From: Candidatus Thorarchaeota archaeon
GTDB taxonomy: Archaea > Asgardarchaeota > Thorarchaeia > Thorarchaeales > Thorarchaeaceae
NCBI GenBank assembly: GCA_048882045.1
Contig: JBHLRZ010000025.1
Location: 1-49,534 of the forward strand
Direction: 5' to 3'
Length of the DNA: 49,534 nt
A program made the translations under genes and the position numbers. The first letter of the stretch is position 1. Every line of letters begins with the position of its first letter. Below are positions 21,539-28,071 of this stretch, piece after piece. The notes beneath the pieces are model-generated. The model had not been told where the DNA came from. It did no database searches and worked only from the letters and a program-made list of their open reading frames with translations.

Positions 21539-23140
21539 TTGAACGAAACCCCTAGTGACCATGACGAGCACGCGGCTCAACCAATAGTTACTCGGATAAA
21601 GGAATGGATTCTCACAAACCCAAATCCAGTCATTCTCTTCGTTACTGCATCGATTGCGACTATTGTTTCATGCGCATTCTATATCGAAATGATGCTTGGA
21701 CTTGGCAATCCTGGTTTCACTTTGGATGACTCTTGGATTCATCTACAGTTTGCGCGAACAATATTCGAAGGGACGCCGTGGGAATACTCACCAGGATATC
21801 CAAGCACAGGATCCACCAGTCCTCTCTGGTCGTTGATTCTGTCACCGATATTCTTCTTCGTTCAGGACACAATTTCAGTCATCTGGGGTGTATTTCTAAT
21901 TTCAATAATCTTCTTTATCGCTTGTTCGTACTTGTTGGGTTATATCATCTATTCCTACACAGAACAAGTCGTCTGGGGAGTCGTTGGGATTTTTGGCTTT
22001 GTCATTCTTCCCCGAAACACATGGCTCATGCTTTCGGGGATGGAAACCCCTCTCTTTATGCTAGTTCTCTTACTCGCAGTTTATTTCCTGGACCGAGAGG
22101 ACAAAAAGGCAGACTATATGCTTGGAGTCATAGCAGGTATAGCTTACCTCTCTCGACCTGAAGGAGTACTTGTTGCAGTTGTCCTTATTCCTCTACGATT
22201 CATGATGCTGGGATACAAACGTCAGATTGACCGCAATAGAGTTCTTTCACTCATTGTATCTGGAGTTATCGCTCTTGTGATTGTTACACCGTGGATTTTT
22301 CACTGCCTGAGTGTAACTGGCTACCCCCTTCCCGACACATTCTATGCAAAGGTACATACTCCCACACCCAGTGAGTGGGAAGCTTGGGATATCTGGTGGA
22401 ATATCTTCATCATTGAGATGAACTTCCTATTATTCGGATTCGCCGCTGGTGCATACCTGATCATAAGAGGCAAACCATTCCCTTGGATTCTAGCTTTGGC
22501 ATTGACCATCCTATATCGTTTATCTACTCCCTATGCCTCTCTTATCAATAATGCTCGATATCTCGTACCCATCTTTGATCTGTTTCTTATAGCTGGTATT
22601 GTATTTTCAGCCTGGCTAGTCAGTTTTTTCTTAGTTCGGATTTTGAAACTACAAGACATCCCAGAAACAAAATATCTTGCAGCAATACTTGTGCTCTTGG
22701 TCTTTGTATTGCCCATGATTCCATCCTATGTTTCTCAGTCTACATATTTCACAAAGTCAGTCCGAACAATAAACGACATGCATGTCGAAATAGGAACTTG
22801 GTTGGCTGGAAACACTCCTGAAGATGCAATCTTTGCAACGCATGATGCTGGTGCAATCCGTTACATATCAGGTAGGAGAATGATTGACATAGCTGGTCTC
22901 CTGAGTCCTGACATTATTCATGGCAATATGACAGCTCATGAAACCCTGAGCTACTTGCGACAGCAAGGATGCAATTACTTTGTTTTCTTTAATGAGCTAT
23001 TTGCATGGTGGGATTATCATCTCCCTTGGAATGCGGTTGAGACTTTGTATACCGTCCACATTCCACCTGAAATCTATGCCAGTGCAGGGAGAGATACCAT
23101 GTCGGTGTATCGAATATACTGGGAAAACACAAGCTACTGA
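21539..23140 (+). CDS. GT-C fold integral membrane glycosyltransferase
   Basis: DDSWIH in the first loop, G.TSPLW, SGMETPL, RPEG, DAGAI.Y, ID..GL; about 11 TM. Confidence 0.85.
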   Translation: MNETPSDHDEHAAQPIVTRIKEWILTNPNPVILFVTASIATIVSCAFYIEMMLGLGNPGFTLDDSWIHLQFARTIFEGTPWEYSPGYPSTGSTSPLWSLILSPIFFFVQDTISVIWGVFLISIIFFIACSYLLGYIIYSYTEQVVWGVVGIFGFVILPRNTWLMLSGMETPLFMLVLLLAVYFLDREDKKADYMLGVIAGIAYLSRPEGVLVAVVLIPLRFMMLGYKRQIDRNRVLSLIVSGVIALVIVTPWIFHCLSVTGYPLPDTFYAKVHTPTPSEWEAWDIWWNIFIIEMNFLLFGFAAGAYLIIRGKPFPWILALALTILYRLSTPYASLINNARYLVPIFDLFLIAGIVFSAWLVSFFLVRILKLQDIPETKYLAAILVLLVFVLPMIPSYVSQSTYFTKSVRTINDMHVEIGTWLAGNTPEDAIFATHDAGAIRYISGRRMIDIAGLLSPDIIHGNMTAHETLSYLRQQGCNYFVFFNELFAWWDYHLPWNAVETLYTVHIPPEIYASAGRDTMSVYRIYWENTSY

Positions 23141-24339
23141 CTTAGGGATTCCCGAACTGCTGATACTAGTTTCTCATAGAGTTCCTCATACTCAGCAACA
23201 TCTACAAAACCACCAGTGAAGTTGTCCTTGCTGCCTCCTCCCTTTCCGCCATACTTCTTCACTGCAGCAGAGATATAGTACGCTGCGTCGTGAGTTGTAT
23301 TGTTCGTTCGAAAGACGACGTGAGCCTTTGGACCCGGGGAAAATAATAGTATGACAGACCGCTCCTCGAATGAAAGTCTGTTTGCTAGATTCCTTAGGTC
23401 TTTCGAACCAAATCCAGGCAGGTATTCATGTCTGAAAGCAATACCTCCGATCATCTCTACACTTACTCCTGATGAAATGAGTTTTCCAATTCTATCTATC
23501 AACTTGGATGTATCATCAATAGCAGCTTTGGCTCCATCAAGAATAGCTCCTACCTGCTCCATCTCAAATGGATAGGTGTGTTTCCTTAGGAGGACTTGAT
23601 TGTATAGATTCCGCGTCAGGGTGATAGCTTTCTCTCCAGATACGAATTCGACTCTGGTGTTTCCATTACTATACTTTACATCAACCACCTTGAAGTACCC
23701 AATGTACTCGGTTGACTCCACATGGATTCCTGAACAAGCTGAGCTGTCAAGGTCACCTACGTTGACAATCCGTAGCATATCGTGTTTTGATGTGAGGTCT
23801 TCCCGAGCTCTAACTGATGAATCGATCTTCTCTGCATCGACAAAATCTGTTTTCACAGGAATCGACATATCAACTAGCACCTGAACTCCTTCCTCAGCTT
23901 CAAAGATATCATCAAACGATGCATGAACGTTACACAGTTCTAGAGTTCCATGATCTCCATCAATCCAAAGGTTTCCAACTTTAAGATCTGGATATGTTTT
24001 CTTTATGATGGATACAAAGAGATGTTCAGATGTGTGGTTTTGCATCATGGCCATTCGCCAATCCATATTGATTTCAAGAACCGCCTTACTCTGTTTTGGA
24101 AGCGAGTCATCAGCTATCAATGTGATACGATCCGAATCCATGATTGTATCCTGAATTGTGACCACTTTGTTTTCAATTCTAAGGAGACCCCGGTCACCTG
24201 CCTGTCCACCCCCTGCAGGTCTAACGACATTCTCCCTGAGCGTGATATAGTACGCATCTTCGTCTTTTTTGACATCATCAATGAAGACCTTGAATGAATC
24301 CCGTGTTGGGTCAGTCCAATAAGGTGGTCGCTCGTCCAT
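23134..24339 (-). CDS. alaX: AlaX-type alanyl-tRNA editing protein with C-Ala/DHHA1 domain
   Basis: PAGGGQAGDRG, MQNHTSEH, CSGIH zinc ligands, C-terminal GGKGGG. Confidence 0.88.
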   Translation of the reverse strand: MDERPPYWTDPTRDSFKVFIDDVKKDEDAYYITLRENVVRPAGGGQAGDRGLLRIENKVVTIQDTIMDSDRITLIADDSLPKQSKAVLEINMDWRMAMMQNHTSEHLFVSIIKKTYPDLKVGNLWIDGDHGTLELCNVHASFDDIFEAEEGVQVLVDMSIPVKTDFVDAEKIDSSVRAREDLTSKHDMLRIVNVGDLDSSACSGIHVESTEYIGYFKVVDVKYSNGNTRVEFVSGEKAITLTRNLYNQVLLRKHTYPFEMEQVGAILDGAKAAIDDTSKLIDRIGKLISSGVSVEMIGGIAFRHEYLPGFGSKDLRNLANRLSFEERSVILLFSPGPKAHVVFRTNNTTHDAAYYISAAVKKYGGKGGGSKDNFTGGFVDVAEYEELYEKLVSAVRESLSQ

Positions 24340-24457: not shown

Positions 24458-25708
24458 ATGTTCAAGTTCATGAAATCCGATCCTGTAAAAAAGGCAAAGA
24501 AGCACATCGAGAAGGCACTCATAGAGCTTGAGGATGGATATCCTGAGTATGCCAGTATTGAATATGAGAAAGCCGCAAAACGCTTTCTTGAGGTTGAGCA
24601 GACTGATTTTGCTGTCAAATACTTCCGAGAAGCAGCATTCTATGCTCTCGAGAAAGGTGATCATTATCGATGTGCTGAGATGAAAATACTGGCTGCTGAG
24701 AGTTTGGTCAGTGAAGGTAGGTATGATGAAGCCGGAGGTCTCTATTCTGAGTGCTCTGATCATCTATTTAGGGAAAAGAAGGAAAGGGAATCAAACAGAT
24801 ATTTGGGGATTTCAATCATTGGATACCTAGCTGCGCGGAATTTCGATACCGCCACTAATATCATGCGAAAAGCTGAGAAACGATTGAAGGATACCCCATC
24901 CAAGAGGGATCCACTGTATTCACTGGCTGAGATGAGTGTAAGAATTCTCTGTGAAGGCGAAGACATCAAAAAGAACACATATGAGAATGCTGCAAAGAAA
25001 GCGAAACCAAATGAGTGTGAACAACCACTTGTCAAGTTTGTAACTGAATCGACCTGCCTAGCCATTGACACCGAAGTAATTCTTGAATGGGCTGGAGCAT
25101 CTCAGAAAGAGGTTAATGTGAAAGAACCACTCGAACTTGAATTACGTTACAAATGTCCTGCGAAAGTAAGAATCGTTGACCATCGGCTTCCTCTTTCAAA
25201 CAGTGTGATACTTACAAAGAAACCTGAATATTCCTCTGAACCAGCCACCGAAGAATCTTGGTTGTTAGAGTTTAAACCAGTGATTAGTGGACTAGGATCA
25301 ATTGGTCCCTTCACTGTAACGTTGGAGGGCGACCGAGTCCTTGTGAACAAACATAGCAATAAGATTGAATTCAATATTGCCAAAGCTCCATCACAGATTG
25401 CTCTAATTGTCAAACCAGAAGTGGTTTCCTGCACACTAGGAGAAGAAGCTGTACTCGAAGTGACAGTTCTGAACGAAGGTGATGGTCCAGCAGAGAACAT
25501 CGAATTTTCAACGGAACTCTCAGATGGACTAGAAATCTCTCTTGGAAATGAACAGAAGCTGATAAACTTCCTTGGCAGTGGAGAGAATGTAAGATTCCAG
25601 TTATTTGTACGGGCAGTCGGTCAAGGAGAAGAACTCGCAACGATGAAGGTTAGAGATGGCCGCTCTGGACAAGAAGTTGTAAAAACATCCATGGTCAGAG
25701 TAGGATAG
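24458..25708 (+). CDS. SNAP/TPR-like alpha-solenoid fused to two Ig-like (CARDB-type) domains
   Basis: About 200 N-terminal residues of A...Y/F..AA helical repeats; beta-rich C-terminal half with V.NEGDGPA.N motif; no signal peptide or TM. Confidence 0.75.
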   Translation: MFKFMKSDPVKKAKKHIEKALIELEDGYPEYASIEYEKAAKRFLEVEQTDFAVKYFREAAFYALEKGDHYRCAEMKILAAESLVSEGRYDEAGGLYSECSDHLFREKKERESNRYLGISIIGYLAARNFDTATNIMRKAEKRLKDTPSKRDPLYSLAEMSVRILCEGEDIKKNTYENAAKKAKPNECEQPLVKFVTESTCLAIDTEVILEWAGASQKEVNVKEPLELELRYKCPAKVRIVDHRLPLSNSVILTKKPEYSSEPATEESWLLEFKPVISGLGSIGPFTVTLEGDRVLVNKHSNKIEFNIAKAPSQIALIVKPEVVSCTLGEEAVLEVTVLNEGDGPAENIEFSTELSDGLEISLGNEQKLINFLGSGENVRFQLFVRAVGQGEELATMKVRDGRSGQEVVKTSMVRVG

Positions 25709-25725
25709 CAATCTTTCCTGAATGA

Positions 25726-26460
25726 CTAGCTCCTTCGCTTTTCCTTCTCAATCTCAGCTCGGATGTTCAAACAGGCTGTCATCACTTGTTCAATAGCCTC
25801 CTCTTCCTCGAAGGTCTTCAGCATATCATCAGCATCATCAAGGTTGTTTTCAGCCAGAGCCTCGCTGAATGAGAGCAAGGTTTCGAGCCAGTCCCAGTTT
25901 GTTTTGGTGATGATCTTCTTTGCCTTCTCTATCCGTTCCTTTGCCTTCTCCATCTTTTCAATGGTGGCAAATCCCATAGCTGCAAGTGAGAGGTTGATAA
26001 CTGCCCTCTCTGCATTACCTGCATCGACTGCTTTGTCCGCTGCCTTGTCATAGAGGTTTCCCATATTCTCGGCGCAGGTCAAGAAGTACTTGGTGTTACC
26101 AGTCTTGTGACAAGAATATGCTGCCCACAGATAGGCTTGAGCAGCAGTTTCGGTCATTCTTTCTAGAAGTGCTTCCTTTGCCGCATTCTCATAGAGTGTC
26201 AAGGCGGTTGAAAAATCACTTACCTGTCTGTATTGACTAGCTGCCTCCATATAGGCTGTTGCGGCAGATCTGTGGTCATCCTTCTCTACACTCTCTTCTG
26301 CATACATGTGATAGTACTCAGCGGCTTTTCGTGTCATATCTAGAACTCGGTCGAGATAGCAACTGGCAGCATTCTTGAACTGGTTGGCTGCTTGGTAGTA
26401 TCTCTCTGCCTCGAGAAACTCTTCTGCAATCCTTTCCCACTGTGTGCATTCATCATCCAT
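25726..26460 (-). CDS. alpha-SNAP/Sec17-like helical repeat protein
   Basis: [34 protein letters not shown] repeats; C-terminal [14 protein letters not shown]..; ATG 26460 after GAGGT. Confidence 0.7.
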   Translation of the reverse strand: [244 protein letters not shown]

Positions 26461-26706
26461 TGCTACTTGACCTCGAGAATTGTTTGATACAGAGCCTTCT
26501 CTCACTCTGTAAGGCTGTTTCTAGGGTGTGTGTGCTGTACAAATATGTTGCTCTGATGTGTTGGTCTCGATTTATCGAAGAAGAGAAGTCTGTTCGCGAG
26601 ATGATGATATAAAAATCAACTTTCTGGGTTATTGAGCCATCGCACAGAGGATTTTTATACGAAATACGTAATCTGTAATATAGCTTATATTCGTGTATGG
26701 GTATCG

Positions 26707-26805
26707 AAAAGGAGGAGAGAGTGATGAGGCAGTTTCGGAAGCTGGCTCTGCCCGTCACTAACCGGATAAGCTGACCAAGTCGGGAACATACGTTCCCGAC
26801 ACTCT
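26707..26805. other. Structured intergenic element (two or more hairpins) directly after the HMG-CoA reductase stop; terminator, 3'UTR structure or sRNA
   Basis: gtcgggaac/gttcccgac (26779-26800); agtgatgaggcag/ctgcccgtcact (26720-26759); pyrimidine tract follows on the minus strand. Confidence 0.55.
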
Positions 26806-28071
26806 TTACTTACCGAGTTCATCCAGTATATCTTTAGCGCGCTCGACTTTGACGTTTTTCTCCTTAACCAATTGTTCGGCGACTAGGTCTACCTCCTCAC
26901 CTCGAGCACCTGCAGTAGCAGCAACATTTCGTGCATGGAGTGCCATGTGACCTTTCTGAATGCCTTCTGATGCGAGCGCTCTGAGGGCTGCTAGGTTCTG
27001 CGCTAGTCCAACACTGGCGATGACATGACCAAGCTCCGTTGCTGTTTCCACACCAAGTATTTTGACACAGGCTCTGGCTACTGGATGAACTTTGGTCGCT
27101 CCTCCTACAAGACCTACTGCCATCGGGATCTCTATACTTCCGAGTAGGTGCCCCTCAGCTGATTTCTCATACTTAGTGAGTGAGCTGTATCCATCCATAG
27201 CTGCCCAGCTATGGGCACCAGCCTCGATGGCTCTGAAATCATTCCCTGTAGCGATGACAACTGAGTCGATACCGTTCATGATGCCCTTGTTGTGAGTGGA
27301 ACACCGATATGGATCTGCCTCTGCAAACGCCCATGCTGCAATGATATCATTGACAACCTCTTCTCCGCCCAATAACTCCTTGTCAAATGTAGCCTTTACT
27401 CGAACAAGTCTGAACTCTGCGAGGTTTGATAGAATCCTTAGGATTACTCTTCCTCCTGTTATGGATTCGATTCTTGGAGCCAAAGCTTCAGCCATTGTGT
27501 TGACTGCATTCGCTCCCATAGCATCTCTTGTATCGACAATGAGCTCGGTCACAAGCATCACCCCAACCTTAGAGTCAAAGATACGGACTCTGAGGTCTTT
27601 CGCACCTCCTCCGAATCGTACTAGAATCGGATCCTGTTCATTAGCAAAAGCAAGTAGCTCTTCTTTCCTCTCCATTATCTTGTTTTTCGCCTCATCAGGA
27701 TTCAAGACATCAACGACCTGTATCTGAGCGATCATGTTCGGACCTGTGTCTGTCGCTGTGAATCCTCCATGCCCTCTTGCCATTCTAGCTGCATTGCTTG
27801 CTGCAGCAACAACTGATGGTTCCTCAATAGCCATTGGGATAAGGTAATCTTTCTCGTTAATCAAGAAGTTGGTAGCGATTCCAAGTGGAAGAGTCATGGA
27901 CCCGACTACATTCTCGATCATATGGTCCAATACACCTAGATCAACTTTTCCAGGGTCAATCAACGGACTTAAGTCATCATCACTGAGACCTGTTACTTCT
28001 TTCAACTTCTTGATTCTGTCCTCTCTAGAGAGTTTATAGAATCCTGTTATCCTTGAATCTTTAACCATCAT
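26806..28071 (-). CDS. mvaA: Hydroxymethylglutaryl-CoA reductase, class II
   Basis: ENVVG, EEPSVVAAAS, DAMGANAVN, THNKGIMNG, GNDFRAIEAG, GHMALH. Confidence 0.95.
   Translation of the reverse strand: MMVKDSRITGFYKLSREDRIKKLKEVTGLSDDDLSPLIDPGKVDLGVLDHMIENVVGSMTLPLGIATNFLINEKDYLIPMAIEEPSVVAAASNAARMARGHGGFTATDTGPNMIAQIQVVDVLNPDEAKNKIMERKEELLAFANEQDPILVRFGGGAKDLRVRIFDSKVGVMLVTELIVDTRDAMGANAVNTMAEALAPRIESITGGRVILRILSNLAEFRLVRVKATFDKELLGGEEVVNDIIAAWAFAEADPYRCSTHNKGIMNGIDSVVIATGNDFRAIEAGAHSWAAMDGYSSLTKYEKSAEGHLLGSIEIPMAVGLVGGATKVHPVARACVKILGVETATELGHVIASVGLAQNLAALRALASEGIQKGHMALHARNVAATAGARGEEVDLVAEQLVKEKNVKVERAKDILDELGK

Follow-up and report, generated by a model that had tools for sequence, protein, structure and literature searches.

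Proteins of the SNAP family (PF14938; PDB 1QQE, 2IFU, 3J96, 9CRU, 9NLU; HAP40 is a derivative) consist of 14 helices, which form a twisted sheet of nine and a five-helix C-terminal globular bundle. In alpha-SNAP and Sec17, a hydrophobic membrane-attachment loop lies between the first two helices; the concave SNARE-binding face of SNAPs is lined with basic residues, and their acidic C-terminal end engages and activates NSF. SNARE-like genes have been reported from Heimdallarchaeia only, explicitly not from Thorarchaeia, and the Heimdall SNAREs resisted mouse NSF (preprint, 10.64898/2026.10.19.760048). As these SNAREs are being characterized, the question of archaeal SNAPs is timely; a genuine one, if true, would move part of the membrane-fusion recycling machinery to before eukaryogenesis. 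We analyzed 49,534 nucleotides from a Candidatus Thorarchaeota archaeon (assembly GCA_048882045.1, contig JBHLRZ010000025.1, positions 1 to 49,534; hereafter the window), whose genome assembly measures 3.6 Mb and is 93% complete. Two convergent genes in the window, encoding proteins that we call P0001 and P0002, had been put forward in a preliminary description as a possible archaeal precursor of the SNARE-disassembly adaptor. By analogy with tetratricopeptide repeat (TPR) proteins, we read P0001 as a soluble, acidic, Thorarchaeia-specific protein-binding scaffold that has the outline of a SNAP but is not a working one, and P0002 as a separate scaffold; we put the probability of this reading at about 0.68. 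The parts of the P0001 gene are as follows.

25726..26460, minus strand: P0001 gene, encoding a 244-amino-acid, all-helical, TPR-like, SNAP-shaped protein (stop codon 25726–25728; open reading frame, ATG common to homologues, AlphaFold2 model)
26104..26436, minus strand: P0001 residues 9–119, the only stretch whose sequence significantly resembles SNAP-type TPR repeats (hhalign, PDB profile search, Pfam)
25729..26100, minus strand: P0001 residues 121–244, six C-terminal helices and the basic tail (matching the SNAP C-terminal region in fold, not in sequence)

The AlphaFold2 model of P0001 (predicted local distance difference test score [pLDDT] 96, predicted template modeling score [pTM] 0.90) contains 12 helices arranged in hairpins, with the last three deviating from the regular repeat. 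When this model was compared with solved structures using Foldseek, a check that the preliminary description had proposed, chains of alpha-SNAP and Sec17 ranked first (E 5e-5 to 1e-4), with template modeling scores (TM-scores), normalized to the P0001 model, of 0.5–0.58 for the better matches. A VIA-align structural search of 48,161 representatives likewise placed Sec17 at the top (Z 15.9, 215 residues, root-mean-square deviation [rmsd] 4.1, P0001 1–244 to Sec17 48–290), followed by gamma-SNAP (14.9), alpha-SNAP (12.6), and HAP40 (12.5), with generic TPR and designed repeat proteins at 10–13. In a second structural look, ranks 1–10 were all SNAP-family chains (Z 14.2–15.8), and LGN (14.0), alpha-SNAP (13.8), and HAP40 (13.5) came after them. 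The structural alignments with Sec17 covered 214–220 residues at an rmsd of 4.0–4.6 and ran from model residues 1–244 to Sec17 46–290, and identity across the alignments with SNAPs was 12–18%. The margin over LGN-type TPR proteins is less than 2 Z units, and VIA-align itself cautions that helical repeats reach Z values of about 14 by arrangement alone.

Judged from the model, then, both aligners place SNAP/Sec17 closest to P0001 among solved folds, and the C-terminal helices are included in the match. Since the alignment is colinear from Sec17 residue 46 to the last residue of P0001, P0001 resembles a SNAP without the first two helices; a 12-helix model with Sec17 46–290 as its best match is consistent with SNAP helices 3–14, with a small margin over LGN. 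P0001 would accordingly be drawn as six TPR-like hairpins in the shape of SNAP/Sec17 minus the first hairpin. Its membership in the TPR-like helical repeat superfamily is clear from the 12 hairpin helices, five sites of the A..(Y/F)..AA motif, TPR structures matched at Z 10–14, and its neighbors in the ESM Atlas, where a fold search returned generic TPR clusters in ten of ten cases (TM 0.50–0.57). The Atlas contains few eukaryotic proteins, so this TPR-only result is also compatible with a SNAP. The motif count in P0001 was reached by none of 2,000 shuffled sequences; a bona fide SNAP has four sites.

P0001 belongs to a well-conserved, uncharacterized, Thorarchaeia-specific family. We found 137 close relatives in a set of 5.8 billion proteins, all of about 240–250 amino acids, nearly all from Thorarchaeota, and named either "hypothetical" or "TPR repeat protein"; a set of 1.84 billion proteins held roughly three clusters of the family at 50% clustering. 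A family profile searched against 301 Asgard genomes gave full-length matches in 70 of the 76 genomes of the same taxonomic family and in the single genome of the sister family, and found no member outside Thorarchaeia, Heimdallarchaeia included. The remaining Asgard genomes yielded only short matches within larger TPR proteins (E 1e-5 to 1e-7). The homologues are intact, 240–250 amino acids long, and 65–91% identical, and their alignment contains 41 invariant columns, including seven glutamates, C5, C34, H51, and three tryptophans; among the invariant residues are E9, E14, E17, E48, H51, E55, Y70, Y77, E91, E104, and W112. The family is under selection, and P0001 is a conserved, expressed-looking gene confined to one lineage. 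Its product is acidic overall (isoelectric point [pI] 4.7), with helices mostly neutral to acidic in net charge except for that at residues 170–186 (+4), and it ends in KEKRRS. The basic tail pointed out in the preliminary description is a family trait, being K/R-rich in 15 of 15 rows of the Thorarchaeial family alignment. A search of NCBIfam gave nothing meaningful for P0001 or P0002, and a literature search found no description of Thorarchaeal SNAP-like proteins.

A separate observation concerns C5, C34, and H51, which are invariant in both Thorarchaeial families. C5 opens helix 1 and C34 closes helix 2, so the two cysteines may be near each other in the hairpin; the three residues may form a metal or redox site.

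The features by which SNAPs act are missing from P0001. It is about 46–50 residues shorter at the N terminus, starting at the equivalent of Sec17 46–49 and alpha-SNAP 51, and so has neither the first hairpin nor the hydrophobic membrane loop; where SNAPs have an acidic, NSF-activating tail, its own is K/R-rich. We found no SNARE or synaptobrevin domain (PF05739, PF00957) in the source genome. Because P0001 has no membrane-insertion loop and no acidic NSF-activating tail, and because no SNARE substrate was found in the lineage, it is not, on our reading, a working SNAP. Its resemblance to SNAPs is one of shape and repeat type only: "SNAP" is a fair label for the outline, and a proto-SNAP role is unsupported by the evidence. 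We propose that, as in other TPR-type scaffolds, a stretch of a partner protein would be held on the hairpin surface of P0001, that the family-invariant residues (the E9 to W112 set) may contribute to the binding surface, and that the K/R-rich tail would make a further contact, electrostatic in nature.

Two considerations weigh against this proposal. While the fold, conservation, phyletic range, and gene order of P0001 are observed, its binding mode and scaffold role are drawn by analogy with TPR proteins. In addition, a specific, very old relationship between P0001 and SNAP may exist, since SNAP chains fill ranks 1–10 and their alignments extend to the final residue of the model, whereas most matches to LGN-type TPR proteins stop short of it.

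The scaffold reading treats P0001 and P0002 separately, and the organization of the locus raises the alternative that they are subunits of one two-subunit scaffold, their convergent layout reflecting a shared role. Around P0001, the locus contains the following.

24458..25708, plus strand: P0002 gene, 416 amino acids (open reading frame)
25709..25725, no strand: 17-nucleotide spacer separating both stop codons (open reading frame coordinates)
24458..25072, plus strand: P0002 residues 1–205, TPR-like domain of 10 helices (AlphaFold2 model)
25073..25708, plus strand: P0002 residues 206–416 and stop codon, two immunoglobulin (Ig)-like beta-sandwich domains, CARDB / macroglobulin-MG-like (model secondary structure, fold matches)
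26806..28071, minus strand: HMG-CoA reductase, co-directional with and upstream of P0001 (67% identity to its counterpart in the sister-family genome G025)
26461..26805, minus strand: 345-nucleotide spacer that separates P0001 from HMG-CoA reductase and contains A/T-rich, TATA-like stretches (sequence read)
23134..24339, minus strand: AlaX-like (tRNA_SAD) gene, divergent from P0002 (Pfam tRNA_SAD match)

The tail-to-tail arrangement with stop codons 17 nucleotides apart is as first described, and it is widely kept. The two genes are adjacent and convergent, with gaps of 8–60 nucleotides, in each of the 23 genomes of the genus in which both occur, and likewise in 13 of 14 further genomes that we compared and that belong to other genera of the family; in the remaining one (G088), the gap is 1.2 kb. 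One genome of the genus (G021) contains neither, so that presence and absence go together across the genus. NCBI locus tags of the homologues are consecutive in many metagenome-assembled genomes, and the helical domain of P0002 bears a weak profile similarity to P0001 (hhalign 72%). Still, convergent genes are not co-transcribed, and the adjacency of the pair holds within one family only. In the sister family, 7 kb separates the two genes, which share a strand; P0001 is still accompanied by HMG-CoA reductase there, and P0002 by the AlaX-like gene. As each gene keeps its own neighbor there, the Thorarchaeal arrangement looks like two older blocks set tail to tail. Moreover, P0002-like proteins of 420–447 amino acids occur in five other Asgard families that have no P0001. 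On balance, a joint scaffold is unlikely.

P0002 differs from P0001 in build. Its model (pLDDT 91) shows a ten-helix TPR-like domain (residues 9–204) followed by two beta-sandwiches, and the A..(Y/F)..AA helical repeats that had been ascribed to both proteins, present in P0001, are confined in P0002 to the N-terminal 205 amino acids (two sites, a count reached in 25 of 2,000 shuffles), residues 206–416 being sandwich. The helical part scored Z 11.9 against Sec17 and gamma-SNAP, the same as against LGN, and reached an hhalign probability of 63.6% against SNAP. Residues 310–416 matched the MG domain of alpha-2-macroglobulin, complement C3, and a Pyrococcus CARDB domain (Z 11–12.6, rmsd 2.2–2.4, about 100 residues); the Pfam DUF11 match, at 13.4 bits, lies under the cut-off of 24.6. 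Domains of the CARDB, DUF11, and MG types are mostly extracellular. P0002 shares their beta-sandwich fold in its C-terminal half but differs in having the sandwiches fused to a TPR-like domain and in its hydrophilic N terminus, in which we saw by eye no signal-peptide-like hydrophobic stretch. P0002 would then be a separate scaffold made of a TPR domain and two Ig-like domains, from a family that extends beyond Thorarchaeia.

Two further points on P0002 may be noted. The P0002-like proteins elsewhere match its beta-sandwich half (E 1e-9 to 1e-23; G128:C190:1034-1867, G118:C116:2433-2951, G190:C23:18593-19303, and others), and the TPR-plus-two-Ig layout may be an Asgard-wide family. We also considered, and dropped, the idea that P0001 is a paralogue of the P0002 helical domain, for which the support is weak (BLASTP E 0.044 in addition to the hhalign value above).

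A second alternative is that P0001 is a true, highly diverged SNAP homologue, a surviving archaeal adaptor of SNAP fold that hands helical-bundle substrates over to an AAA ATPase of the Cdc48 type, as the preliminary description had inferred. Shape speaks for it: both are all-helical hairpin solenoids that close in a compact helical cluster, with P0001 colinear with Sec17 46–290 over its whole length, sharing the A..(Y/F)..AA motif and a similar acidic pI, and SNAPs top the solved folds in Foldseek and VIA-align. Sequence comparison also gives it some footing. Among Pfam families, SNAP ranks first for P0001, whereas classical TPR families match it only weakly (TPR_7, E 0.49), and 16 of 16 sampled family members match Pfam SNAP and almost no other family. 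A PDB profile search recovered alpha-SNAP at E 0.004, and hhalign aligned P0001 with seven eukaryotic SNAPs at a probability of 96.7% (E 3.4e-10, 108 columns, P0001 9–119 to SNAP 96–205). Of the distant matches in the 1.84-billion-sequence set, further, only the eukaryotic SNAPs are both short and single-domain, and the genome encodes two Cdc48 homologues.

The sequence signals are limited to the N-terminal half of the protein. The Pfam SNAP match of P0001 (25.6 bits against a cut-off of 25) spans residues 18–81 and profile positions 28–89 of 282, and is thus not the full-length match of true SNAPs, which score 245–354 bits over positions 2–281. The hhalign register lies one hairpin off the structural alignment, a shift typical of repeat proteins. 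Residues 121–244 reached an hhalign probability of 3.9% against the SNAP profile, and no SNAP was among their matches in a PDB profile search. The preliminary description had aligned P0001 by eye with alpha-SNAP from end to end and into the C-terminal bundle. In fold this stands, as the match reaches the last residue; in sequence it does not, HMMER giving 5.6 bits for the N-terminal pairing and 1.2–1.3 bits for the C-terminal one. The structural register agrees with the C-terminal pairing proposed by eye and disagrees with the N-terminal pairings.

Nor is the signal specific to SNAPs. PF14938 exceeded its cut-off in 275 of the 301 Asgard genomes, mostly within multi-TPR proteins of 500–1,400 amino acids and with up to 58 bits, and it did so in 2 of 14 control genomes as well, Deinococcus and Methanosarcina being matched at a stricter E-value. 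In the 1.84-billion-protein set, the best non-family matches of the P0001 profile were long TPR_12-type proteins (750–1,350 amino acids), which themselves match Pfam SNAP at 100–130 bits; eukaryotic SNAPs came after them (E 5e-8 to 9e-4). Two unrelated Asgard TPR proteins scored 93% and 96.7% with hhalign against the same SNAP profile, for which P0001 as a single sequence reached 91.6%. Given the spread of PF14938, the rank of the long TPR_12 proteins, and the scores of the control proteins, we judge the sequence signal between P0001 and SNAP to be unspecific. Neighbors in a protein language model fit this picture, forming a continuum from archaeal TPR clusters with Pfam SNAP matches to gamma- and alpha-SNAP. 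With generic TPR_12 proteins (LGN/Pins, kinesin light chain, BtubC, Rap phosphatases, and the long Asgard multi-TPR proteins), P0001 shares the hairpin repeat type; it differs from them in being short, single-domain, and of fixed length (240–250 amino acids).

The small structural margin over LGN, the generic TPR neighbors of equal TM-score in the ESM Atlas, the missing loop, and the basic tail all count against homology, as does the setting. No SNARE or NSF was found in the genome of the organism, and per the literature no SNAREs have been found in the lineage; only Cdc48-type ATPases are present, and the two homologues are encoded on other contigs; and none of the Asgard genomes searched outside Thorarchaeia, those of Heimdallarchaeia included, yielded a member of the family. 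True SNAP homology is thus quite unlikely. The preliminary description had named best hits to generic TPR proteins lacking the SNAP bundle as the outcome that would tell against a precursor of the SNARE-disassembly adaptor, and this is largely what we obtained, with long TPR_12-type proteins first. Also at odds with the precursor reading are control proteins that score alike, a C-terminal bundle without support in sequence, a genome without a detected SNARE domain, a family found, among the 301 genomes, in Thorarchaeia only, and a gene pair adjacent in one family only. A historical variant, in which eukaryotic SNAP arose from archaeal stock and P0001 is a relic of that stock, a Cdc48-recruiting adaptor of SNAP fold for helical-bundle substrates that predates SNAREs and NSF and was kept only in Thorarchaeia, is a long shot.

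TPR repeats of the SNAP type occur commonly in Asgard and other archaea, and a Pfam SNAP match in an Asgard genome should not be taken for a eukaryotic signature protein until it has been tested further. The two control proteins merit description in this respect. One, P0279 (L023:1090-1968, minus strand, on contig C9 of the same genome and outside the window), is a 292-amino-acid TPR protein that scores 27.4 bits against Pfam SNAP, above P0001, and 35.4 bits with neighboring stretches; hhalign aligns it with SNAP at 93% in N-terminal register (30–148 to 29–146). Its C-terminal tail is very acidic (DSPDDEDDDFDEDLLEFQDED), and its gene lies directly downstream of a 233-amino-acid open reading frame that resembles a small GTPase by eye only. 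The other (L013:1456-2190, plus strand, contig C15 of genome G053, from another Asgard family) is a 244-amino-acid TPR protein with a Pfam SNAP score of 56 bits, aligned to the SNAP profile from its N terminus (4–158 to 7–166, probability 96.7%). At the level of sequence, it is more SNAP-like than P0001.

A third alternative, which we hold to be highly improbable, would make P0001 an acidic protein that chaperones or escorts basic ones (histones or ribosomal proteins, for example), much like the SHNi-TPR proteins NASP and Hif1. Its pI of 4.7, the seven invariant glutamates, and NASP-type structural matches (AtNASP Z 12.6, sNASP 12.4, Hif1 10.0) point that way, but those matches rank under SNAP and LGN, the model shows no acidic insertion loop of the kind that is typical in SHNi-TPR proteins, and the window shows no linkage to histone or ribosome genes. 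We also set aside a likeness to PCI/proteasome-lid proteins (8amz_Q, Z 9.8; 8usb_X, Z 12.4), which ranked under SNAP and LGN; moreover, P0001 has no winged-helix domain.

Some details of the P0001 gene and its surroundings remain. We read the protein in its 244-amino-acid form because the homologues start at an equal Met-Glu-Asp-Glu-Cys. The 345-nucleotide spacer upstream probably holds a putative promoter of P0001 itself; an open reading frame of 101 amino acids there (26453–26758, minus strand) was dropped as a gene, as it is not conserved in the sister-family genome. In that genome, the gene divergent from the P0002 homologue also has a tRNA_SAD Pfam match. In both Thorarchaeial families, the gene immediately upstream of the P0001 homologue, and read in the same direction, encodes HMG-CoA reductase (window 26806–28071, minus strand; L009:3149-4408, plus strand), and the reductases are 67% identical between the two, the P0001 proteins only 39%.

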